Below, piece by piece: positions 1,477 to 62,503 of a stretch of DNA of 64,000 nt (its first letter is position 1; each line of letters begins with the position of its first letter). Origin of the DNA: an uncultured Chloroflexia bacterium (GTDB lineage: Bacteria > Chloroflexota > Anaerolineae > CG2-30-64-16); contig CAVZDU010000007.1 in the NCBI GenBank assembly GCA_963774265.1, positions 320,001-384,000 of the forward strand. Direction: 5' to 3'. The notes below the pieces were generated by a model. The model was not told the origin of the DNA. It saw only the letters and a list, made by a program, of their open reading frames with translations, and did no database searches. The position numbers were made by a program, and so were the translations under genes.

Positions 1477-3240
1477 TTCCGCTCTTCTGCCACCTGATGT
1501 TGATAGACTTCGGCATACAGCCCCGATGTCTGCAGCAGCTCGGCGTGCGTGCCACGCGCCACGATACGGCCGCTGTCCAGCACGAGGATCAGATCAGCGC
1601 TGCGAAGCGTACTGAGTCGCTGGGCAATGACAAATGACGTTCGACTTGTCATCAGAGTTGTGAGCGCCTCCTGGATCAGCTGTTCGGTCTCAGTGTCAAC
1701 GCTCGACGTCGCGTCGTCCAGAATCAGGATGCGCGGATCCTTCAACAGGGCCCGCGCGATGGCCACGCGCTGTCGTTGTCCGCCCGATAATGTAACGCCG
1801 CGCTCTCCCACCGTAGTGTCGTAGCCCTGCGGCATGGCCATAACAAACTCATGCGCTTGCGCCGCTTGTGCGGCTGCGATTACCTCATCCAGCGTAGCCC
1901 CTGGCCGGCCAAACGCGATATTCTCCCGCACGCTCCCGGCAAACAGCAGGGTCTCCTGCAACACGATGCCTACCTGGTCCCTGAGCGAGTTCAGGGTTAC
2001 CTTTCTGATGTCGTGCCCATCCACAGTGATGCGGCCTGCGGTTGGATCGTAGAACCGCGGGATCAGATTGATGATCGTTGACTTGCCAGAACCCGTTGCG
2101 CCGAGCAGCGCAATTACCTGTCCGGGTGACGCCTCGAAAGTTACATCGGAAAGCACCGCGTGCCGTCCGAAGTAAGCAAAATGCACCGCCTCGAACCGGA
2201 CCAGGCCTTTCACAGGCGGCAGCAGCGTGGCATCGGGATCATCACTTACCTCAGATTGTGCATCAAGTATCTCGAAGATGCGCTCGCCAGCAGCCGATGC
2301 CATCGCCAATGCCGGGATGATGTTGCCGATCCGCCTGACCGGCGACACAAGCTGGCTCAGGTACGTGGTAAAGGCGACCAGTTCGCCCAGGGTCAACCGT
2401 CCCTGAATAGCGAGCCATCCGCCTACGCCAATCGCGGCTGCTGTGCCCAGATTTGCGATGAGCGCAAGCTGGGGATCGTTGCGCGCCTGCAGCGCCGCCT
2501 GTTGCGCTGAGAGCTCAAACCAACGGTCGTTTTCCGCGTCGAAGCGGCGGATCTCAGCGTCCTCCTGGGCGAAGGCTTTGACGATGCGCCGCGCCGCGCA
2601 GATTCTGTTCCAACCGGGTCGTGATTTCCGCCAGTTGGCGTTGGATGCGCAATCCCAAGGGGCGTAATTGCCGCCCAAAGTGGAACGCGCTCAACGCCAG
2701 GAGGGGGATGATGAGCATGGTCAGCGCCGCGAGCTGAGTGTTCATGGTGAACAGGATGATGACAGTGGCCACTGCCAGGACGATGCCCTCGGCTAGCCGC
2801 AACACCGCGCGACCCGTGAGAAAGCGGATACGCTCGACGTCCTGCACAGCACGGGACAGCAGTTGCCCCGTTTCGGCCCGGTCGTGATAGGAGAATGAGA
2901 GCGCGGCCAGTTTGCGATGGATCTCGCGCCTCAGATCATACGCCACACCCTGGGACGCTATCTCGGTCCACCGGCCCTCAACGAAAAGGGCCGCGCCTTT
3001 GAGCAGGGTCAAGCCCAGCAGCACGAGCACCGTCTGCAGCAGGAGGGGTAGGTTGCGACCGCCGATGCCTTTGTCCACGATATATCGGATTAACTGGGGG
3101 ATGAGCACTGCCAGACCCGTTGCTGCGAGCATGCCCGCATACGCGCCCGCCGTGAGCCGCCAGTACGGTCGGAGGCGAGCAAGTGCGCGGACAAGGATCG
3201 GCGACTGCGGAGTTGTCAGTTCTGGCTGTCGGCTTGGCAT
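1473..3240 (-). CDS. ABC exporter, fused permease/ATPase, one frameshift near 2590
   Basis: ORF 2554..3372 (TM domain) plus ORF 1473..2678 (GATGSGKS, LSGGQRQR, ILILDD); frames join at LEQNLRG / RIVKAFAQE. Confidence 0.88.
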
Positions 3241-3480
3241 TGGAATCATGGGACGGGTATGGCGCAGCGTCTGCATGATGAGGTGCTGACCCTGGCGCGG
3301 GATGCGCTTTGCAGCAAGGACGCTCGTGGTGGGCGTGCCGGCAGAGCGCCGCCCGGTTGGGGGCGCGACCAAGGCCGCTGCCTTTCAGCATGCGCAGCGT
3401 GCTTTCACCGGCGATGTGACTTGCCGCCACCCCTAATTCCGGGCGCCCTTTGCGCTGATCGGGGACACGGCAAGCCTTTC

Positions 3481-4203
3481 CTACTCAAACGGATACATCT
3501 TCCCGATGAACGCCTTGTCCGTCTCCGACAGTTCGGTGTTCCACCCGACCGAGAAATCCCCCACCGTGATTTCCTCAGGCACCGGGTACATCATAATCGA
3601 CTTTGGGTCGAACTGGCTGTATTGCGTCGACGGCAGGTTGTAGTGCTGGAAGACCTGGAAGTCAACCTCTTCGCGGCTCCAGCCGTTCTGCGCATAATAG
3701 GCGTAGGCCTTCTCCTTATCCCAAGGCACGCCGCCCTGGGGATGCTGATGCTCATGGATGCAGCCCAGCGCGTGGCCGAACTCGTGCAAAACTACCCTGC
3801 TATACTCGGCATCGCCGGTCGAAGGGGTAAGCCAGCCGTAGTTCATTGTGGGCGCGTACTGGTTAAACCAGTGAATCAGGTTGCTCGTCCCCATGTACGA
3901 CCACGAGCCGGCGTCTTCGATGAACGCGATGCGCAGGAACGCCGGCCCCTCAGTGACGAACTTGAACTTGATGTTGGCGTACTGCTCCCACTGATGGGCA
4001 TAATGCTCCACGCGTTCCTGCACCGCCTTCTCGCCGCCGAGGAAGCGTATAGATAACGTGCTTCCTTTGCGCCAGGGACGCATCACCGCCATCTCGTAGG
4101 GATCTGGGTCTGCCAGGCCCATATCGACTGCCACGCGATTTGCCGCCACAATCATATCGGGCGGCAACACCTTGGTGTCGATGCACATTTTGATTGTACG
4201 CAT
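3481..4203 (-). CDS. Zinc metallopeptidase, astacin/M12-like metzincin
   Basis: HEFGHALGCIHEH zinc motif, SIMMY Met-turn, GSWSYMG; GGAGG RBS before ATG 4203. Confidence 0.85.
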   Translation of the reverse strand: MRTIKMCIDTKVLPPDMIVAANRVAVDMGLADPDPYEMAVMRPWRKGSTLSIRFLGGEKAVQERVEHYAHQWEQYANIKFKFVTEGPAFLRIAFIEDAGSWSYMGTSNLIHWFNQYAPTMNYGWLTPSTGDAEYSRVVLHEFGHALGCIHEHQHPQGGVPWDKEKAYAYYAQNGWSREEVDFQVFQHYNLPSTQYSQFDPKSIMMYPVPEEITVGDFSVGWNTELSETDKAFIGKMYPFE

Positions 4204-47527: not shown

Positions 47528-50211
47528 CTAGCGGGCGCTGAAGCGCGGCTTGAAGGCCCGCAGGCGGTTGGCGTTGCTCACCACGGTCACGCTGGAGAAG
47601 GCCATCGCGGCCCCGGCGATCAACGGGCTGAGCAAGATGCCGAAGAAGGGATAGAGCAGCCCCATCGCCACCGGCAGGCCCAACACGTTGTAGATGAACG
47701 CGCCGACCAGGTTCTGCTTGATGTTGCGCATGGTCGCCCGGCTGACCTCGATGGCCGTGACCACCCCGCGCAGGCTGCCTTTGATCAGGGTGATATCGGA
47801 CGCCTCGATGGCGACGTCCGTGCCGGTGCCGATCGCCAGGCCCACGTCGGCCTGCGCCAGCGCCGGCGCGTCGTTGATGCCGTCGCCCACCATCGCGACC
47901 TTCTTGCCTTCCGCCTGCAGCAGGTGGACGTTGTGCGCCTTGTCCTCCGGCAGCACCTCGGCCAGCACGCGATCCACGCCCACTTGCCGGGCGATGGCCT
48001 CGGCCGTGCGGCGGTTGTCGCCGGTGATCATCACCACCTCGATGCCCATGCGGTGCAGCGCCGCGATGGCTTCGGCTGAGTCGGCCTTCACGGTATCGGC
48101 CACGGCGACGATGCCGGCGGCCTGGCCGTCCACCGCGACGTACATCGGCGTCTTGCCCTCATCCGCCAACTCCGCGGCCTGGCTCTCCAGACTCCGTCCT
48201 GAGTCGCCGAGGCGTCCAGGGCGACCCTCGCGTTGCATCAGCTTGAGGTTGCCGATCGCCAGTTTGTGACCTTCGACGGTCGCCAGCACGCCATGGCCGG
48301 GGACAGCCTCGAACGCCGTCGGCTCGGTCAAGGTCAGGTTGCGCGCCTTGGCGCCTTCGACGATGGCCTCAGCCAGCGGGTGCTCCGACGACCGTTCCAC
48401 CGCCGCCACCAGGCGCAGCAGATCGTCGGCCAGCCATGCACCGGCCACAGCTACATCGGTCAGTTCCGGCTTGCCCTTGGTGATCGTGCCGGTCTTGTCC
48501 AACACCACGGTCTTGATCGCCTGGGCGGTCTGCAAGGCTTCACCGGAGCGGATCAGGATGCCATTTTCGGCGCCCTTGCCGATGCCGACCATCAGGCTCA
48601 TCGGCGTCGCCAGGCCCAGCGCGCAGGGGCAGGCGATGATCAGCACGGTCACGCTCGTGACCAGCGCGTACACCAACTGCGGCTGCGGGCCGAAGTTGAA
48701 CCAGACGACGAAGGTCAGCACGGCCAGGATCATCACGATGGGCACGAAGTAGCCGGAGATCGTGTCGGCCAGGCGGGCGATGGGCGCTTTGCTGTTCTGC
48801 GCGTCCTGCACCATCTTGACGATCTGCGCCAGGGCCGTGTCCTTGCCGACCTTGGTCGTGCGGAACTTGAACGCGCCGGTCTTGTTCAGCGTGGCGCCGA
48901 TCGACTTCATCGCCCGCCCTCTTGCTGACCGGCAGCGACTCGCCGGTGAGCATGGACTCGTCCACCGCCGAGCTGCCTTCCAGGATCACGCCGTCCACGG
49001 GCACCTTTTCGCCGGGGCGCACCTGCACCACATCGCCGACCAGCACTTCCTCGACCGGGATGTCAAGCTCCTGGCCGTCGCGGATCACGCGGGCGGTCTT
49101 GGCCTGCAGCCCCATCAGCTTCTTGATGGCCTCGCTGGTGCGGCCCTTGGCGCGCAATTCGAGCGCCTGGCCCAGCACCACCAGCGCGATCACCACGGCC
49201 ACCACGTCGTAGAACGGCTCCGAGGTGCCCTCGGGGAAGAGGCGTGGAAACAAGATGGCGACGGTCGAGTAGAGCCAGGCCGCGCCGGTGCCGAGCGCGA
49301 TCAGGGTGTTCATGTTGGCCGCGCGGTGCTTGAGCGCGGCCCACGCGCCGGTGAAGAAATGGCCGCCCGACCAGACCAGCACGGGCAGGGTCAGCAGCGC
49401 CGCAGCCAGCCACGCCAGGCGCAAGGTCGCCATGCTCCAGTCGCGCACGAACGGGATGTACTGCGGATAGGCCGTGATCAGCACCGGCAGCGAGATGATG
49501 GCGGCAAAAAGGAACTTACGGAACAGGCTGCGGTATTCGCGGTCATGCTCCGCCTCTTGCTTGTCGACCGGCTCCTCGCTCGCGGCCGGCCGGGCCTGGT
49601 AGCCCCAGTCCTCGATGACGTCGTGCAGTTGCGCCAGGGTGGTTTGCTGGGGCAGGTACGCGATAGTGGCTTCCTGGGTGCCGACGTTGACGGACGCGCT
49701 CGAGCACGCCCGGCGTCGCGCGCAGGTCGTCCTCGATGAAGCCGACGCACGAGGCGCAGCGCAGGTCCTCGATACCGATGCGGGTCTGCGCGCCGCCGGC
49801 CCGGAAACCGGCCGGCCGGAGGCCGCGGCCAGGGCCGCGGTGGTCGTGCGCTGCGGATCGTACTCGACCGTGACCACGCCCGCGCCGGCGTTCGCATGTG
49901 CGCTGCGCACGCCCGGTACGCCAGCCGCGGCGGCCTCCACGGCGCGGCCGTCGCCCTCCCGCTGTCAGCCCCAGCACCGGCAGCTCGATGCGCGCCAACG
50001 GCAGGTCGGGGTTGAAGCCGGTCGTGGCAGAGCCGGCCGGCAACGAGGCTTCCGTCACAGCCAGTTCTGCGTGGGTGTAGCGGTGCGGGTCGGCATCGAA
50101 CTTTTCGACGCAATTGGGTGAGCAAAAGTAAAACGTCTGTCCCATGCGCTCGCGGCTGGCGGCCGCGTCCCGGGGTTCGATATCCATGCCGCAAACAAGG
50201 TCTCTGACCAT
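47528..50211 (-). CDS. copA: Copper-translocating P1B ATPase with N-terminal YHS and HMA domains, several frameshifts
   Basis: [52 protein letters not shown] and MAFSS. Confidence 0.92.
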
Positions 50212-55057: not shown

Positions 55058-56779
55058 TCAACGGAGCAGCGGGAGCTGCGCTGTAATAGTGACGCCCTGA
55101 CCGGGGCTGGACGTAATCGTGAGCTGCCCACCGTAGAGTAGAACACGCTCGCGCATGCCCATCAGACCGAAGTGGCCCTGGTGGGCCAGGTCAGCCGGCT
55201 GCTCCGGCGGGGTAAAGCCGACGCCATCATCCCCTATGACCAGGGTGAGCGTAGCGGCTGCAAAGGTGACTTCCAACCAGGCTCGGCTGGCCTGGGCGTG
55301 AGCGGTCACGTTTGCCAGCGCCTGCTGCACGATGCGATAGGCGGCCAGTTCCAGATCGGAGGCCAGGCGAACCACCTGACCATGCACCGCTAGATGTACG
55401 CTCAGGCCATACCGCTCCTCGGTCTGGTGCGCCAGCATCTCGAGCGCGGGCACAAAGCCGAGATCTTCCAGGTAGATCGGTCGCAGGTCGCCGATGATCC
55501 GGCGCAGGCTCGCGACCTCCTCGTCAATCAGGCTGTTCAGCTCCTGGAGCCGGGCCTCGACACGGGCCGGGTCGCGGCCGAAGGCTTTCAACGCCATCTG
55601 GCCGCGCTGCTTGAGAGCGATGAGGCCCTGGATGGTGACGTCGTGCAGCTCGTGGGCCAGGCGGGTGCGCTCCGCCTCTTGGCCTTGGGTGATGGCGCTC
55701 AGGTAGTCCCGCATGCCACTCTGGTAGGACCGGATCCGCTCGGCCATCTGGGCCAGGGTGACGCGCAGGTCGTCTATTTCCTGCACGCCACCCACCGGCT
55801 GCTCGACTGCGTCGAAGTCCCCCCAGGCGACCCGCGCGGCCCGCCGATCCAGCTCCTGCAATGGCCGCACAACGCTGAGCACGCCGAAAGAGACAGCCAA
55901 CAGCGCGACCACTGCCACGAAGAGCAGGAGCAACGGCAGCACCTCGACCGCGCTCATGCCCATCGCGGTGATCGTGTGGACATCCTCGACGGTCGCCAAG
56001 GTCCAGCCCGGGGGTTCCACGTGCGCATAGGACACGAGCAGTTCCCGACCCTGGCGATCGCGCAGATAGGTCGAACCGGTGCTGGCCGGTGGCAAGCTGC
56101 CCAGCACCGCCGGATCCACAGCCAGACCGGCAGGGTCATGGTGGTGAACGCGCCGCCCGGTCTGGTCGAGGACGAACATGGCGCCCTGCATCTCGCCCTC
56201 TAGCAGCAGGTTGCTTTCGGCCAGGCTCAAGGCCTCCACCGGCAGCGCGCCGACCAAGACTTTCCCGCCGGACGCCGGCACGGCAATCAACAAGCGCGCG
56301 GCATCGTCACTTGACAGATCAGTCTCGTATTGCGTCTGGCCGACAGCCGCTGCGCGCGCGGCCAGGAGACGCGCCGTGTTGCTCGCCGCCCAAGCAGTTG
56401 CGGCCGGCGAAGCGGCCACGAGTGCGCCCTGGTCGTCCAGCCAGGCCAGACCACCGGTGAAACTGCCAATAGCATCAAGTGGTTGATCGGATAGGGTCGC
56501 AGGGAGCTCGGCAGCGGGTAATGTCGCCGCCAGGCGGGCCAGCACGGCAACCTGTTGCGCGATCTCGCGGCCTAAGCGGTTCGCTTCGGCGGCCGCCACG
56601 CCCCGGTCGCGATCTTCTACCAGGCGCGTCATCGCCTGCCGATGGCGCGTGACACCGGCGAGTGACAGTACGATCAACACCACTGCCAGCGGCAGGATGG
56701 TCCAGAGCAACAGTTGAGCGCGGAGACCGCGCAGGAGCCGATGGCGCCCGCGTGGCGGTCCGGTTGAATCAGGCGTCAT
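55058..56779 (-). CDS. Sensor histidine kinase (extracytoplasmic Cache-like domain, HAMP, HisKA_3)
   Basis: QEAERTRLAHELHD, LRPIYL, YRIVQQALAN, DDGVGF, GHFGLMGMRER. Confidence 0.92.
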   Translation of the reverse strand: MTPDSTGPPRGRHRLLRGLRAQLLLWTILPLAVVLIVLSLAGVTRHRQAMTRLVEDRDRGVAAAEANRLGREIAQQVAVLARLAATLPAAELPATLSDQPLDAIGSFTGGLAWLDDQGALVAASPAATAWAASNTARLLAARAAAVGQTQYETDLSSDDAARLLIAVPASGGKVLVGALPVEALSLAESNLLLEGEMQGAMFVLDQTGRRVHHHDPAGLAVDPAVLGSLPPASTGSTYLRDRQGRELLVSYAHVEPPGWTLATVEDVHTITAMGMSAVEVLPLLLLFVAVVALLAVSFGVLSVVRPLQELDRRAARVAWGDFDAVEQPVGGVQEIDDLRVTLAQMAERIRSYQSGMRDYLSAITQGQEAERTRLAHELHDVTIQGLIALKQRGQMALKAFGRDPARVEARLQELNSLIDEEVASLRRIIGDLRPIYLEDLGFVPALEMLAHQTEERYGLSVHLAVHGQVVRLASDLELAAYRIVQQALANVTAHAQASRAWLEVTFAAATLTLVIGDDGVGFTPPEQPADLAHQGHFGLMGMRERVLLYGGQLTITSSPGQGVTITAQLPLLR

Positions 56780-58200: not shown

Positions 58201-58408
58201 AAATCTACCCTCACTTTCTCCAAGAGAGGCGGCATCGTATCACGCGACGCTTCGCACTTTCACCCTATATCATCGCGCAGCCGGGGCGGGGTGCCAGGGC
58301 TTTTTGGCGTAGATCGACATTAGGCCATTCAGCGCGGTCACTGCATGTGTTCCGTGCGCAACGCTATCATCACGCCAAATGGCGCATTCCCATCACGCCG
58401 GACGGCGC

Positions 58409-58437
58409 TTACCAGCGCGACGCCCGGTTGGTATACT
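58409..58437 (+). promoter_or_regulatory. Sigma70 promoter of the redox/selenoprotein operon
   Basis: TTACCA, 17-nt spacer, extended -10 TG-G-TATACT. Confidence 0.6.
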
Positions 58438-58468
58438 ACCGCTGAATGTCCGTATCAGGAGTAACCCT

Positions 58469-58901
58469 TTGACAAAACGACTTTTCCTTCTGCTTCCGGT
58501 CCTGCTGATCAGCAGCCTTTTGCTGGCCGCCTGCGGCGGCGGGCAAGCGAATCCCCAGGTCAAGCTGGCCCCCGTCTCGGCGCTGCCTATGCAGATGCAG
58601 CAAGCTCCTGCCGCAGTCCGCACAGCCTACCAGTTCGCCGTCGACCAACCCGGACGCCCTGCGGAACGTGCCGTGCTACTGCGGCTGCGGCGCCATCGGG
58701 CACAAGAGCAACCTGGCCTGCTACATCAAAGAGTTCGGCGCGGACGGCAAGCCGGTTTTCGACGATCACGCCATGGGCTGCAGCATCTGCGTGGACATCG
58801 CCACCGATGTGATGCAGATGACCGGCGAAGGCAAGTCGCCAACCGATATCCGGCAGCAGATCGTGGATACCTACAGCAAGTTCGGGCCGGCGAACCAGTG
58901 A
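58469..58901 (+). CDS. PCYCGC motif lipoprotein, frameshift near 58650
   Basis: AGGAG RBS and TTG start, lipobox LAAC, VPCYCGC, GHKSNLACY, DHAMGCSICVD. Confidence 0.85.
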
Positions 58902-58927: not shown

Positions 58928-59388
58928 ATGGTGCTGAGCATGAGCCGAACACAATGGTGGGCGGGTGGCATTACCGTGTCACTCGTGCTGTTAACCTTGC
59001 TGGCGCCGCTGCCGGCGATGGGCGCGCCGCCGCAGGAGCGGCACATCACGATCTCGGCCCGCAGCTTTGCGTTCGAGCCAGGCACCGTGCGCGTGAACCG
59101 CGGCGATACGGTGATCGTCAACCTGGAATCAACCGATGTGGTGCACGGGTTGTACGTGGATGGCTACGGCGTCGCGACCCAGGCCGAGCCGGGCCGGCCG
59201 GGGCAAGCTCACCTTTCGTCGCCGACCGGAGCGGAGCCTTCCGCTTCCGCTGCAATGTGGCGTGCGGCAACTTGCACCCGTTCATGATCGGCAAGCTGGT
59301 CGTCGGCCCGAATCTGACCTGGCTGCGGGCGATCGCGGCCACGCTGATCACGGCGGTCGGCGCGCTGGCCGTCTTCTGGAAACGCTGA
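58928..59388 (+). CDS. CuA-type cupredoxin (Cox2-like domain) with TM anchors, frameshift near 59210
   Basis: FAFEPG, DVVHGLY, FRCNVACGNLHPFMIG (H..C-x3-C-x3-H-x2-M). Confidence 0.82.
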
Positions 59389-60750
59389 TGCGCTACGCCA
59401 TTTCGGAGATCCCGGTCATCAAGCGCGTGCTCCGCGTCGCGCTGGCTCCAGTGGAGTCTGACCGCGCTCACGCTGCTTTTCTTCGTGCTGGCGATCATCG
59501 CGGGGCTGGTCGGCACGCCAGCCGGCAACCGCAACTTCGGCATCGTCTTCGTCTGGATCGTCTGGTGGGCGCTGCTGATCCTGCTGCTGGTGCCGTTCGC
59601 GGGCCGGCTGTGGTGCGGCGTCTGTCCCATCCCGGCGCCGGGCGAATGGCTCCAGCGCCGCGCCCTGGTCCAGCCGCGGCCGGGCGGCAAGCTCTACACG
59701 CTGGGCAAGAAGTGGCCCAAGGCCTTGCGCAACATCTGGCTGCAAAACGCCGGCTTCCTGGGTGTGGCGCTCTTTTCCAGCGTCATCCTGACGACGCCCA
59801 TGGCCACGGCGCTGGTGTTGCTCGGCTTCATGATCGTGGCCATCGGCACGAGCCTGGTCTTCGAGCGGCGCACCTTCTGCCGCTACCTCTGCCCGGTCGG
59901 CGGCTTCATCGGGCTGTACAGCCAGGTCGCGCCGATCGAGCTGCGGGTGAAGGACACCGATGTCTGCGCCAGCCACACCGAGAAGACCTGCTACACCGGC
60001 AGCGACGAGGGCTACGGCTGCCCCTGGCTGGTCTTCCCCGGCGGCCTGACGAACAACACCTACTGCGGGCTGTGCACCGAGTGTCTGAAGACCTGCACGC
60101 GCGACAACATCGCCATCTTCGTGCGCCAGCCCGGCGCCGACCTGCTGAAGACCACCGGCCACAAGCTCGATGAAGCCTACAAGGGTCTGATCATGCTGGC
60201 CTGCGCGTTCATCTACTCGACGGTGCTGATCGGGCCGTGGGGCGTGCTGAAGGAAACTGCACGGGCGGTGGGCACGCCGGGCTGGTTTGCCTACGCCGGT
60301 ATCTTCCTGGCGCTGAACCTGGCGATCCTGCCCGGTCTGTTCTGGCTGGCTGTGCGCGGCGGACAACTGATCGGCAGCCCAGCCAAGACCTCCATCCGTA
60401 AGCTTTTCGCCGATTACGCGGCCGTGTTGGTGCCGTTGGGCCTGACCGCCTGGGTCGCGTTCTCGCTGTCGTTCGTGTTGATCAACTTCTCCTATGCCTG
60501 GTCGGTGCTCTCCGACCCGCTGGGCTGGGGCTGGAACCTGCTGGGCACGGTCGGTCTGAAATGGACGCCCTACATCCCAGGGCTCGTGCCCTATCTGCAA
60601 GTGCCGGTGCTGCTGCTCGGCCTGACTGCCGCGCTCGCGTTGGCGCTGCGCACGGCCCGCCAACACGGCCAATCGCCGTGGGCCGCGACGCCAGTGGCGG
60701 TCTTCTGCACCGCCGCGACACTGGGGCTGTTGGGCCTCTACCTGGCCTGA
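59388..60750 (+). CDS. 4Fe-4S binding polytopic membrane protein (NapH/NosR-C-terminal-like), frameshift near 59435
   Basis: GRLWCGVCP, RTFCRYLCPVGG, GCPW, YCGLCTECLKTC; many TM helices. Confidence 0.85.
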
Positions 60751-60787: not shown

Positions 60788-61800
60788 ATGGCACGCGGTA
60801 GATCACGGGGCAAGGGAGAGCTTTTTGCGCTGGGCGTTGTCCTGCTGGTGCTCGTGGCCTTCCCGGCCGGCATCTTCGGCTACCAGGCGTGGCGGGTGGC
60901 CTCGGCTGGCGTCAAGGCTGTGGACATCATGGCCCGCGCGCCGGAACAAGGCGGGTTCAGCCCGGATCGGCTGAGCCTCCGGGTGGGTGAGACGGTCGGC
61001 TGCGCATCAGCTCGCCGGACGTGGTGCACGGGTTGACCATCCCTGGCCTGGGCGTCAATGTCGATGAGATCTACCCCGGCAAGGTGGTTGAGGTGGACGT
61101 GACGCCGGACAAGCCGGGGCGTTATGCCTTCGCCTGCACCCGCTGGTGCAGCGTTGATCACTGGCGCATGCGCGGGGTCATCGAGGTGACAGGCGATGGC
61201 CGGCGCGGTCCTGCCGACGGAACAGCCGCCCCTGTTCCAGCAGCTCGGCATCGACATCGACGCCATGCGGCCTGCGGCGCAGGCCACGCCCGAACGCCCG
61301 GCCCTCGATCGCTGCGGGTGCAGCGTTGAACGCGAAGCTGCCGCAGGATCTGACCGACCCGGCCAAGCGCCGCACGCTGACACCCGCCGACGCGTTCCAT
61401 AATCTGCGGGCCGATCCCGCCAACGCCGCGCTGAGCGACGCCGACGTGTGGAACCTGGTGGCCTGGGCCTGGCTCAAGGATGTGCCGCCCGACCGCGCTG
61501 GCGCGCGCCGAGACGCTCTACGCCCGCGACTGCGCGGCCTGCCACGGCCCGGATGGCAAGGGGCAGGGGCCGGCCGGGGTGAATCTGCCCGGCAAGGCCA
61601 AGATGGACCCAGCCATGCCCAAAGGCCCGGCGGACTTCACCGAGGCCGGTGCGATGCTGGCGGCCAGCGACGTGCTGCTCCAGGGCAAGCTGCTGCGCGG
61701 CGGCATGGGCACCGGCATGCCGGAGTTCGGCTCGCTGTATTCCGATGAAGAGCAGTGGGCGATGATCGCCTATCTGCGTACATTTCTGTTCGAGAAATAA
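60788..61800 (+). CDS. CuA-type cupredoxin fused to c-type cytochrome, several frameshifts
   Basis: TM helix, DVVHGL, FACTRWCSVDHWRMRG, then LYARDCAACHG..GMGTGMPEFG. Confidence 0.8.
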
Positions 61801-61828
61801 CACCACGGCTGACAAGAAGGAGGAATGG

Positions 61829-62345
61829 ATGCCTAGTAAGACCAATCAACTACCGAAGGGCGGGAAGGTCAATACCCCGCCCGCGAAGCGCAACGTTCTG
61901 CCGCTCTATCTGGGCGGCGGCGCGCTGCTGGTGATCATCATCGGCGTCGTGCTGATGGCAAATGCCGGGCGCGGTTCGTCCGGTTCGAGCGTTCCGGCAC
62001 AGGTGACCGGCAAGCCAAGCCTGCCTTGTCGATCGAGAGCAGATCGACTTCGGCAAGGTGCCGCTTGACATACCGGTCAAGGCCACCTTCAAGCTCAGCA
62101 ACGTCGGCGATCAGCCGCTGCAGATCCTGAGCCAGCCGGTCGTCGAAGTCAAGCAGGGCTGCTGACCGCCCAAAGCTGTCGTCGGTTCGACGACCATCAA
62201 GCCCGGTCAGAGCACGGAGCTCTCGATGGAATTCATGATGCACAAGGGCATGGAAGGCGCACACGATTTCCGAGTTAAGGTAAAGACTAACGATCCGGTC
62301 AATCCGGAGCAGGAACTGGTCGTGCTATCGGATTGGGGGAAGTGA
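61829..62345 (+). CDS. Membrane-anchored Ig-like (DUF1573-like) protein, candidate selenoprotein (UGA at 62163), frameshift near 62025
   Basis: IDFGKV..ATFKLSNVGDQPLQI..EVKQGC-TGA-PPKAVVGSTTIKPGQSTEL..MMHKGMEGAHDF..KTNDP; frame stays open to TGA 62343. Confidence 0.78.
62178..62194 (+). promoter_or_regulatory. Putative bacterial SECIS hairpin
   Basis: GTCGTCG-GTT-CGACGAC, starting 12 nt after the in-frame UGA, with G at the start of the apical loop. Confidence 0.6.
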
Positions 62346-62503
62346 TCAAACGGGACGATAAACATGGCTGACGAGCAGACGCGCGTAGAAATGCGGATCA
62401 ACTGACACACGAGAAGCGGCGGGGTCGGCGGTCGTTCTCGGTTAGCGGCCTGGCCCAGCGACCACCACTCGATAATATTATCACTTGGCTTGACACGATC
62501 TGG

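Follow-up and report, generated by a model that had tools for sequence, protein, structure and literature searches.

A gene on the plus strand of a 64,000-nucleotide (nt) stretch of DNA from an uncultured Chloroflexota bacterium (G000:C7:320001-384000, hereafter the window, to which all unlabelled coordinates refer) contains an in-frame TGA that is almost certainly decoded as selenocysteine (Sec), making this a real selenoprotein gene. Comparative sequence evidence indicates that the gene belongs to a real, widespread and mis-annotated family of selenoproteins, in which cysteine (Cys) and Sec stand side by side and which is encoded here within a copper-related operon. Taken as a whole, a selenoprotein with a function connected with copper is probably the best explanation of the data, and the finding points to a link between selenium and copper that has not been catalogued. 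The parts of the gene, including an immunoglobulin (Ig) domain and a selenocysteine insertion sequence (SECIS), are as follows.

61819-61823, plus strand: Shine-Dalgarno-like GGAGG, 5 nt upstream of the start codon, from the sequence
61829-62022, plus strand: N-terminal part in the frame of ATG 61829, with a basic tail, a hydrophobic signal-anchor and a Gly/Ser-rich linker
61898-61960, plus strand: hydrophobic signal-anchor segment L24-A44 (21 residues), from the translated reading frame
62021-62025, plus strand: one extra base compared with relatives, breaking the frame between anchor and Ig domain and probably an assembly indel (alignment with locus L012)
62025-62162, plus strand: first half of the Ig domain (DUF1573/HYDIN-like), ending with the invariant Gly46-Cys47
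62163-62165, plus strand: in-frame TGA predicted to be read as Sec, Sec48 of the domain, in the motif G-C-U-P-P (U, Sec)
62166-62342, plus strand: 59 codons for the second half of the Ig domain, with ...LSDWGK at the end
62178-62194, plus strand: predicted SECIS hairpin, stem GUCGUC/GACGAC (6 bp) and loop GGUUC, also encoding VVGSTT
62238-62264, plus strand: Met/His loop M73-H-x-G-M77-x-G-x-H81, candidate metal ligands
62343-62345, plus strand: real stop codon TGA; the gene ends at this point in relatives too, with TGA, TAA or TAG

The TGA at 62163-62165 directly follows a TGC (62160-62162) in a frame that is open from 62022, and beyond it come another 59 sense codons before the frame closes with a TGA at 62343-62345. 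These features, and the translated text ...EVKQGC-TGA-PPKAVVGSTTIKPGQSTEL...MMHKGMEGAH...KTNDP..., had been reported in an earlier reading of the same DNA (the initial annotation) and can be read directly in the window. It had also been stated that routine calling of open reading frames (ORFs) would miss the gene or cut it at the TGA. This proved to be so: plain ORF calling breaks the gene into three pieces, 61829-62068, 62058-62165 and 62226-62345, and database proteins show the same truncation, as described below.

A priori, an internal TGA followed by an open frame might be explained by normal termination, by an error of sequencing or by recoding of TGA as a sense codon, the downstream frame being open by chance. 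A run of 59 open codons is not rare in G+C-rich DNA and the window contains many spurious ORFs. Comparison with relatives makes such an explanation scarcely credible. A six-frame search of a class sample of 401 genomes gave matches in 86 genomes, from which the loci were extracted. The arrangement G-C-TGA-P-P or G-C-TGA-P-S was found in 78 loci, representing 70 genomes and 23 families, and each orthologue contains exactly one internal TGA. Over 72 loci the mean identity to the window rises from 48% upstream of the TGA to 58% downstream, the protein beyond the codon being conserved as the initial annotation had anticipated. The codon itself is TGA in 78 of the 79 orthologous loci and TGT in the remaining one (L061, genome G233, 2863-3321). 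When the latter is compared with its TGA-containing congener (L066, G257), the 51 bases that follow the codon are identical. The SECIS is still intact in this Cys form, which implies that the switch between Sec and Cys was very recent. A read error would not recur in relatives from many independent assemblies, as this TGA does, and because the true stops of these same genes are TGA, TAA or TAG, TGA is not a general sense codon. Eleven weaker matches proved to be ordinary DUF1573 paralogues; ten of these have Cys-x-Cys and one (L096) has U-G-C, the catalogued type. A phylum sample yielded 13 more matches, from 10 genomes outside the class; in each of these the count of internal TGAs, taken without regard to position, is one.

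A search of protein databases gave two types of relative. Those of the first type are mostly full-length, about 155-165 residues, with roughly 45-57% identity. The second type comprises at least 36 proteins of 110-117 residues with 85-98% identity, aligning with only the first 42-44% of the query. Each of the six short relatives that were fetched ends exactly at ...KQGC, and the database proteins of close relatives, some of them from NCBI, are such shortened forms. The named relatives belong to Anaerolineae metagenome-assembled genomes (MAGs) and to Candidatus Amarolinea aalborgensis (87% identity). In the 47 aligned Cys-form proteins GCCPP is universal and both cysteines are invariant. Thirteen full-length relatives were fetched, of which 11 have GCCPP, one GCSPP and one GCWPP. 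For the last two (P0002 and P0048) the codons would be TCA and TGG, each one base removed from TGA; P0048 later goes out of frame, and these motifs may be real variants, errors or recoding by the gene caller. With the shortened gene calls the conserved Met/His loop is lost, along with the rest of its half of the domain. If the Sec position were built into a family model, the annotation would be mended in 70 of the 401 class genomes, and in more from other classes.

The initial annotation had described a SECIS-like hairpin 12 nt downstream of the TGA, and inspection of the window bears this out. GTCGTC (62178-62183) and GACGAC (62189-62194) enclose the loop GGTTC (62184-62188), so that the stem is of 6 bp, or of 7 bp if G62184-C62188 is counted. 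A bacterial SECIS (bSECIS) is modelled in section 5 of a 2026 catalogue of selenoproteins (PMC13188914) as a stem of 4-16 bp with a loop of 3-9 nt, a distance of 16-37 nt from UGA to loop and a minimum free energy no higher than -7.5 kcal/mol, the loop having a G within its first two positions and the pattern N1-G-[G/U]-N-N2. With a stem of 6-7 bp, the loop GGUUC and a distance of 18-19 nt from UGA to loop, the present hairpin falls within that description. Like the E. coli fdhF-type SECIS and the bSECIS consensus, it is an in-frame hairpin directly after the UGA, with a small loop that begins with G and then G or U. It differs from the fdhF type in being only 17 nt long, in having a stem that is nearly invariant across the phylum and in lacking an Rfam match; a scan of 61800-62400 returned no SECIS family.

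In an alignment of 78 sequences, 76 of them distinct, the six-pair stem is formed in 99.3% of the alignment cells. Double-sided changes occur at five of the six pairs (57 cells), and 500 shuffles of the columns never reached such values. When one arm is shifted by one or two columns, pairing falls to 5-33%, and with a shift of three, a whole codon, to 59-72%. The stem variants include GTCGTC/GACGAC, ACCATC/GATGGT, GTCATC/GATGAC, GCCATC/GATGGC, ACCGTC/GACGGT and ATCGTC/GACGAT, and in L082 a pair of synonymous changes converts a C-G pair of the stem to A-U. In four loci (L052, L053, L064 and L070) a one-codon insertion places the stem 15 nt from the TGA. The full stem is present in 75 of 76 distinct Sec forms from genomes and in all 17 distinct Sec forms from metagenomes, with a mean local free energy of -10.7 kcal/mol in the latter. 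In the 23 distinct metagenomic Cys forms it is never complete; these form two to five of the six pairs, with a mean of -2.8. The sole exception among the Sec forms, L088 (G400:C535), has three of the six pairs. In this locus the first half of the gene, as far as GC-TGA-PPR, continues directly into a CuA cupredoxin with no SECIS, and L088 is best read as a chimera, either a deletion remnant or a product of assembly, an intact copy (L040) being present in the same genome. The idea that the hairpin is kept merely because it encodes VVGSTT was considered and ruled out, since the peptide varies, for instance to TIGSMV, with pairing retained, and since Cys forms with similar peptides lose the pairing. 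A short, phylum-wide, covarying SECIS, together with a pair of congeners that differ only in having TGA or TGT at this codon, constitutes a natural experiment on the conversion of Sec to Cys.

The initial annotation had made its proposal depend on selA, selB, selC and selD, and all four are present in the genome: the tRNA-Sec gene (selC) scores 73.2 bits, SelA 421, SelB 333 and SelD 382 bits. The selA gene is split by a frame break in the assembly. SelD (G000:C1:464620-465552) has one in-frame TGA, and the selenophosphate synthetase is therefore probably a selenoprotein itself. Among the 70 carrier genomes, a SelA match is present in 61. The other nine are fragmented MAGs, in seven of which SelB is above the cut-off and in two of which there are fragments at contig ends; thus no carrier is without some trace of the Sec machinery.

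With these results in hand, the trivial explanations may be weighed again. An alternative code with TGA as a sense codon was ruled out by the single internal TGA in each orthologue and by the many true stops that are TGA. Sequencing error and a plain stop were ruled out by the conserved TGA loci, the Cys forms, the hairpin and the machinery. A frame open by chance would leave unexplained 78 loci with the same TGA and a conserved downstream protein, the Cys forms, a hairpin that both covaries and is tied to the TGA, and the presence of the Sec machinery. Several points nevertheless weigh against decoding as Sec, or reduce the force of the arguments for it. The presence of selenium in the protein, and its expression, are predictions from sequence. 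The carriers are related species, so that fewer independent events lie behind the covariation than its cell counts suggest. Nearly every genome of the class has SelA (354 of 401, the only count that includes the unpublished genomes G346 and G389), which makes its presence in carriers non-discriminating and the phyletic link uninformative as evidence from carriers. Finally, the copy of the Sec gene in the window is frameshifted as assembled.

This last point deserves attention because it leads to another explanation, namely that the family is real but that the copy in the window is a dead gene, a genuine insertion near 62023 having parted the anchor from the domain. As assembled, the membrane-anchor ORF (ATG 61829) and the Ig domain are indeed in different frames, a difference that escaped the initial annotation, and a search of sequencing runs turned up none containing the source strain. 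In an alignment with L012, the protein of which is 95% identical, the window has one extra base near 62023. In relatives the same N-terminus is joined in frame to the Ig domain; anchor and domain share one frame in the other 29 loci of a 30-locus comparison. Frame breaks occur everywhere in this assembly: the CuA-cytochrome c gene upstream has about four frame changes, and the cupredoxin, Fer4_5 and PCYCGC genes of the operon, a P1B ATPase gene (47543-49172) and selA (G000:C1:1423808-1424886) are also split. When contigs of relatives from four other metagenomes are compared with the window, single-base indels appear exactly at its frame breaks (60996, 61196, 61292 and 61491-61495), and one of these contigs has a single gap within 61979-62115, the span that contains the frame break of the Sec gene. 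The genome assembly consists of 10 contigs and yet its completeness is only 84%, and apart from the extra base the gene, with its close identity to L012, exhibits no decay. The extra base is most likely an error in an indel-rich assembly, and a dead copy seems improbable. Since the assembly appears to be indel-rich, caution is needed with gene calls throughout this genome. In one run that we guess to be RNA, contigs of a relative extend over the Sec gene; this was not counted as evidence of expression.

The initial annotation had supposed that the sequences on either side of the TGA are two halves of a single DUF1573-like Ig fold, and this supposition was correct. When the TGA is read through, Pfam reports DUF1573 (PF07610, 42.4 bits with a cut-off of 26.1) and a HYDIN_VesB_CFA65-like Ig domain (PF22544, 39.9 bits with a cut-off of 25.5). 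Both span the TGA, extending over residues 4-95 of the read-through protein, so that both halves are part of one fold. The proposal of a membrane-anchored, extracytoplasmic protein was partly sustained: the basic stretch and the 21-residue hydrophobic segment agree with it, and it needs one frameshift to be an error. With that frameshift corrected, the product is inferred to have about 171 residues, with a short basic cytoplasmic tail, one membrane anchor and an extracytoplasmic PapD/HYDIN-like Ig domain. An AlphaFold model of the domain has a pLDDT of 94.4 and eight strands; in this model strands 4 and 5 are joined by the loop with G-C-U-P-P, and strands 6 and 7 by that with M73-H81. As loops alternate in a sandwich, this strand order implies that the Cys-Sec loop, the Met/His loop and the loop with the invariant N27 and G29 should share one pole. 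Across 82 sequences G46, C47, P49, M77, G79, H81 and F83 are invariant, the Sec/Cys column contains Sec or Cys in 81, and M73 is likewise kept in 81. In four genomes of one family (L052, L053, L064 and L070) the Sec Ig domain is fused to an N-terminal region of about 270 residues, which has HMGGWG/MGMMGG-like runs of Met, His, Trp and Gly and a weak PepSY match.

It was of interest to compare this gene with the DUF1573 selenoprotein that is already known. That family (OS_HP2, with the motif UxC/UGC) has been known since 2007-2008 and is included in the 2026 catalogue of 119 families and subfamilies, the text of which treats different Sec positions as distinct subfamilies (PMC13188914). The possibility arises that the Sec gene is a plain member of OS_HP2 and that nothing about it is new. 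It shares with OS_HP2 (NF041425) the DUF1573 Ig superfamily, a Sec in the loop that carries Cys-Gly-Cys, a predicted extracytoplasmic location and an unassigned function. NF041425 gives weak matches in 65 of the 82 members (best E 9e-11), a DUF1573 selenoprotein is in the catalogue (PMC13188914), and supplements or databases may list these genes under that heading. The position of Sec is different. In OS_HP2 it replaces the first Cys of CGC, where the present family has Glu, Gln or Lys; here the second Cys of CGC is kept and Sec directly follows it (G-C-U-P-P), three residues past the UGC-type Sec. In an hhalign comparison Glu45 pairs with the UGC-type Sec, Cys47 with the second Cys and Sec48 with the Thr of CGCT; the Pro-Pro that follows is an insertion. 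The initial annotation, which had put the UGA at the Cys-x-Cys motif of the family, was therefore nearly right, Cys47 being the second Cys of that motif and Sec48 the residue after it. The window scores 36 bits on NF041425, far below the 100-bit cut-off, and it also lacks the UxC Sec position of OS_HP2; no other NCBIfam model captures the 82 members. The balance of forms differs as well. In the class sample the Sec form outnumbers the Cys form by 78 to 1, whereas the GOS listing for OS_HP2 in PMC2398784 has 2 Sec and 354 Cys sequences. Further, the class also contains a distinct gene of the true UGC type. This is L096 (G253:C16, locus 2971-3636, minus strand), a DUF1573 gene reading ...KST-TGA-GCT... 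with its own downstream hairpin, Sec at the UGC-type position and 77.8 bits on NF041425 (cut-off 100). Given the separation of subfamilies by Sec position in the text of the catalogue (PMC13188914), we consider plain membership of OS_HP2 to be quite unlikely.

The initial annotation had left it undecided whether the family was already catalogued; the UGC-motif DUF1573 selenoprotein is, and the CU-type family is absent from the lists examined. A description of a G-C-U-P-P family was sought by literature searches, in Table 1 and section 5 of PMC13188914 and in the accessible text of PMC9312934, PMC2398784, PMC13326102 and PMC12013277, supplements and BSepDB being outside this scope, and none was found. 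As far as could be read in these sources, the Cys-Sec DUF1573 family appears to be uncatalogued and its Sec position new, and the copper/CuA neighbourhood of such a DUF1573 selenoprotein is described here first. The family adds to the known selenoproteins one in which Sec would stand beside Cys in an Ig fold and in which the Sec form is dominant within its clade. Most known bacterial selenoproteins are thioredoxin-like.

We turn now to the genes that accompany the Sec gene. In the window the operon contains, upstream of it, the following.

58371-58898, plus strand: PCYCGC-motif protein (PF13798), Cys form, first recognisable gene of the operon
58937-59385, plus strand: second CuA-type cupredoxin of the operon, in two frames as assembled
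59262-60750, plus strand: Fer4_5 polyferredoxin membrane protein of the same operon, in two frames as assembled
60788-61800, plus strand: partner gene, a CuA-type cupredoxin (HG...C-x3-C-x3-H-x2-M) fused to a c-type cytochrome (CAACH), with several 1-nt indels

From the PCYCGC gene onward the window is syntenic with a cluster in a close relative, G219, which has on one strand and in this order genes for a P1B ATPase (with an HMA domain), a PEMT/ICMT-like protein, a multicopper oxidase, a ZIP-like protein, the PCYCGC protein, a CuA cupredoxin, a Fer4_5 protein, a CuA-cytochrome c and the Sec protein. The CuA-cytochrome c gene is directly upstream of the Sec gene in 35 of the 79 loci; in nine the Sec gene is itself directly upstream of PCYCGC/cupredoxin/Fer4_5 genes, and in 15 a P1B ATPase, multicopper oxidase or PCYCGC gene lies in the flank. 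Copper-type neighbours are present in 59 of the 79 loci in total. The CuA ligands (His, C-x3-C-x3-H-x2-M) and the haem motif do not vary among 28 partner proteins, in which the invariant Cys pairs are C101/C105 of the CuA site and those of the haem motif CAACH. The association of these genes outlasts their rearrangement, which argues for a shared function. In G233 the CuA cupredoxin and the Fer4_5 polyferredoxin, which are separate genes in the window and in G219, form a single protein of 600 residues (L061, 117-1919), a gene fusion that links the two.

Copper-type neighbours at 59 of the 79 loci make a copper-handling role plausible from the standpoint of gene context, and the following mechanism can be proposed. 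By analogy with the standard bacterial process, the SECIS hairpin would recruit SelB carrying Sec-tRNA(Sec), and the ribosome would insert Sec at 62163-62165 rather than stopping there. The invariant Gly-Cys-Sec-Pro-Pro/Ser loop between strands 4 and 5 would then present a vicinal thiol-selenol pair, and this pair, together with the Met/His loop (M73, M77 and H81), may form a site for a soft metal, most likely Cu(I), the ion that the initial annotation had suggested for MMHKGMEGAH. Such a site might hold, pass on or redox-cycle copper for the co-encoded electron-transfer module, which comprises two CuA-type cupredoxins, a c-type cytochrome and a Fer4_5 polyferredoxin and is located inside metal-homeostasis clusters. 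When gene context and residue chemistry are considered together, the chance that the Sec protein handles copper seems to us slightly less than even. The more specific proposal, that G-C-Sec-P-P and the Met/His loop constitute a Cu(I) site with a selenolate ligand, serving an undescribed extracytoplasmic electron-transfer module that is widespread in Chloroflexota, is put forward tentatively. Were it true, the Sec protein would be the first copper chaperone or cuprous redox site among the selenoproteins, in a family with the Sec form as the rule, and the supply of selenium would condition copper tolerance or the assembly of CuA. The finding in any case ties selenium to a conserved CuA/cytochrome c/polyferredoxin module, so that the job of this module, and its need for a selenol, become a testable question.

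A number of results count against the copper role. The case for it is built from gene neighbourhood and residue chemistry. That the Cys-Sec loop should lie near the Met/His loop is deduced from strand order. H74 is kept in 70 of 82 sequences, so the Met/His loop is not wholly invariant. In a Foldseek search against the PDB the best matches were 2qsv, HYDIN, VesB and PapD-like/ASH Ig domains, all of them generic, and there was no metal chaperone among the top matches. The G219 ATPase exceeds the cut-offs of both the Cu-type model (TIGR01511, 406.6 bits) and the Zn/Cd-type model (TIGR01512, 531.5 bits), the latter giving the better score. At 20 of the 79 loci, none of the copper-type neighbours that were queried is present; ten neighbour proteins from seven of these loci were scanned and yielded one NosL domain, one DUF305 and unrelated genes. 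A predicted complex between the Cys form of G233 and its CuA-cytochrome c neighbour gave no support and was not used as evidence in either direction.

These points invite consideration of a different function for the same selenoprotein. The vicinal Cys-Sec pair might cycle between the selenol/thiol state and an eight-membered selenylsulfide ring, in which case the protein would be an extracytoplasmic oxidoreductase and not a copper binder; it might, for example, keep the CuA or haem-binding cysteines of its partners reduced, in the manner of TlpA or Sco. There is a precedent in mammalian thioredoxin reductase, with a C-terminal Gly-Cys-Sec-Gly that can form a selenylsulfide ring and that works through selenol/selenylsulfide cycling. 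In that flavoenzyme the motif is on a flexible C-terminal tail and the SECIS is eukaryotic, in the 3'-UTR, whereas here Gly-Cys-Sec precedes Pro-Pro in a loop inside an Ig domain and is served by a bacterial, in-frame SECIS. The invariant Cys pairs of the partners would be suitable substrates, a gene for the haem chaperone CcmE adjoins the Sec gene in one locus without copper genes, and section 7 of the catalogue regards most bacterial selenoproteins as redox proteins (PMC13188914). The fold, on the other hand, is an Ig sandwich and not thioredoxin-like, invariant Met and His are typical of metal sites and not of disulfide exchange, and genes for an efflux ATPase, a multicopper oxidase and NosL are found nearby. 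In addition, CU motifs in the catalogue belong mostly to metal or organometal proteins, as far as its Table 1 and text extend (PMC13188914). On balance we consider a function as an oxidoreductase unlikely, and less so than the dead-gene and OS_HP2 explanations discussed above.

Comparison with known systems helps to define what is distinctive about the proposed copper-handling selenoprotein. The CU-motif, metal-linked selenoproteins of Table 1 in PMC13188914 (HgcA, SaoL, SaoC, MbdU and the Csac_0668 type) likewise have adjacent Cys and Sec in a metal or organometal context. They are unrelated in fold and organism; in that table none is a membrane-anchored Ig-fold protein and none is tied to CuA/cytochrome c. 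PCuAC (PcuC) and Sco, extracytoplasmic copper chaperones for the assembly of CuA (PMC6669012), are small proteins of beta-sandwich or thiol type, tethered to the membrane or periplasmic, from which CuA centres receive their Cu. They resemble the Sec protein in having Met/His or Cys ligands and in being encoded near their clients; here the putative ligand set would include selenium, and the binding of a CuA partner is putative. Neither family was among the Pfam matches of the read-through protein down to E = 1. CcoG, a cupric reductase, is a Fer4_5-type polyferredoxin with a periplasmic Ig-like domain, to which the available text of PMC7558416 assigns no function. The likeness is one of architecture only, a polyferredoxin and an extracytoplasmic Ig-like domain, which here are encoded by separate genes of one operon. 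The Fer4_5 protein of the operon matched no NCBIfam family at E <= 1e-5, the CcoG/FixG models included, and Pfam gave Fer4_5 only; FixG_C was not among the Pfam matches of the Sec Ig domain.

Some further observations concern individual loci. The NosL or DUF305 neighbours are at L045 (4120-5439, minus strand) and L089 (2101-2814, plus strand), which are loci without the CuA module. The PCYCGC protein of the window (58371-58898, plus strand) is a Cys form, PCYCGCG, of a family that includes selenoproteins in other organisms, and its G219 orthologue scores 69.6 bits on NF041379 (the OS_HP4 CYCXC family). Divergent from the operon, at 55058-56779 on the minus strand, there is a histidine kinase gene (dCache, HAMP and HisKA_3 domains), the product of which may be the sensor of the operon; in L054 a similar kinase and a LuxR-type regulator adjoin the Sec gene.

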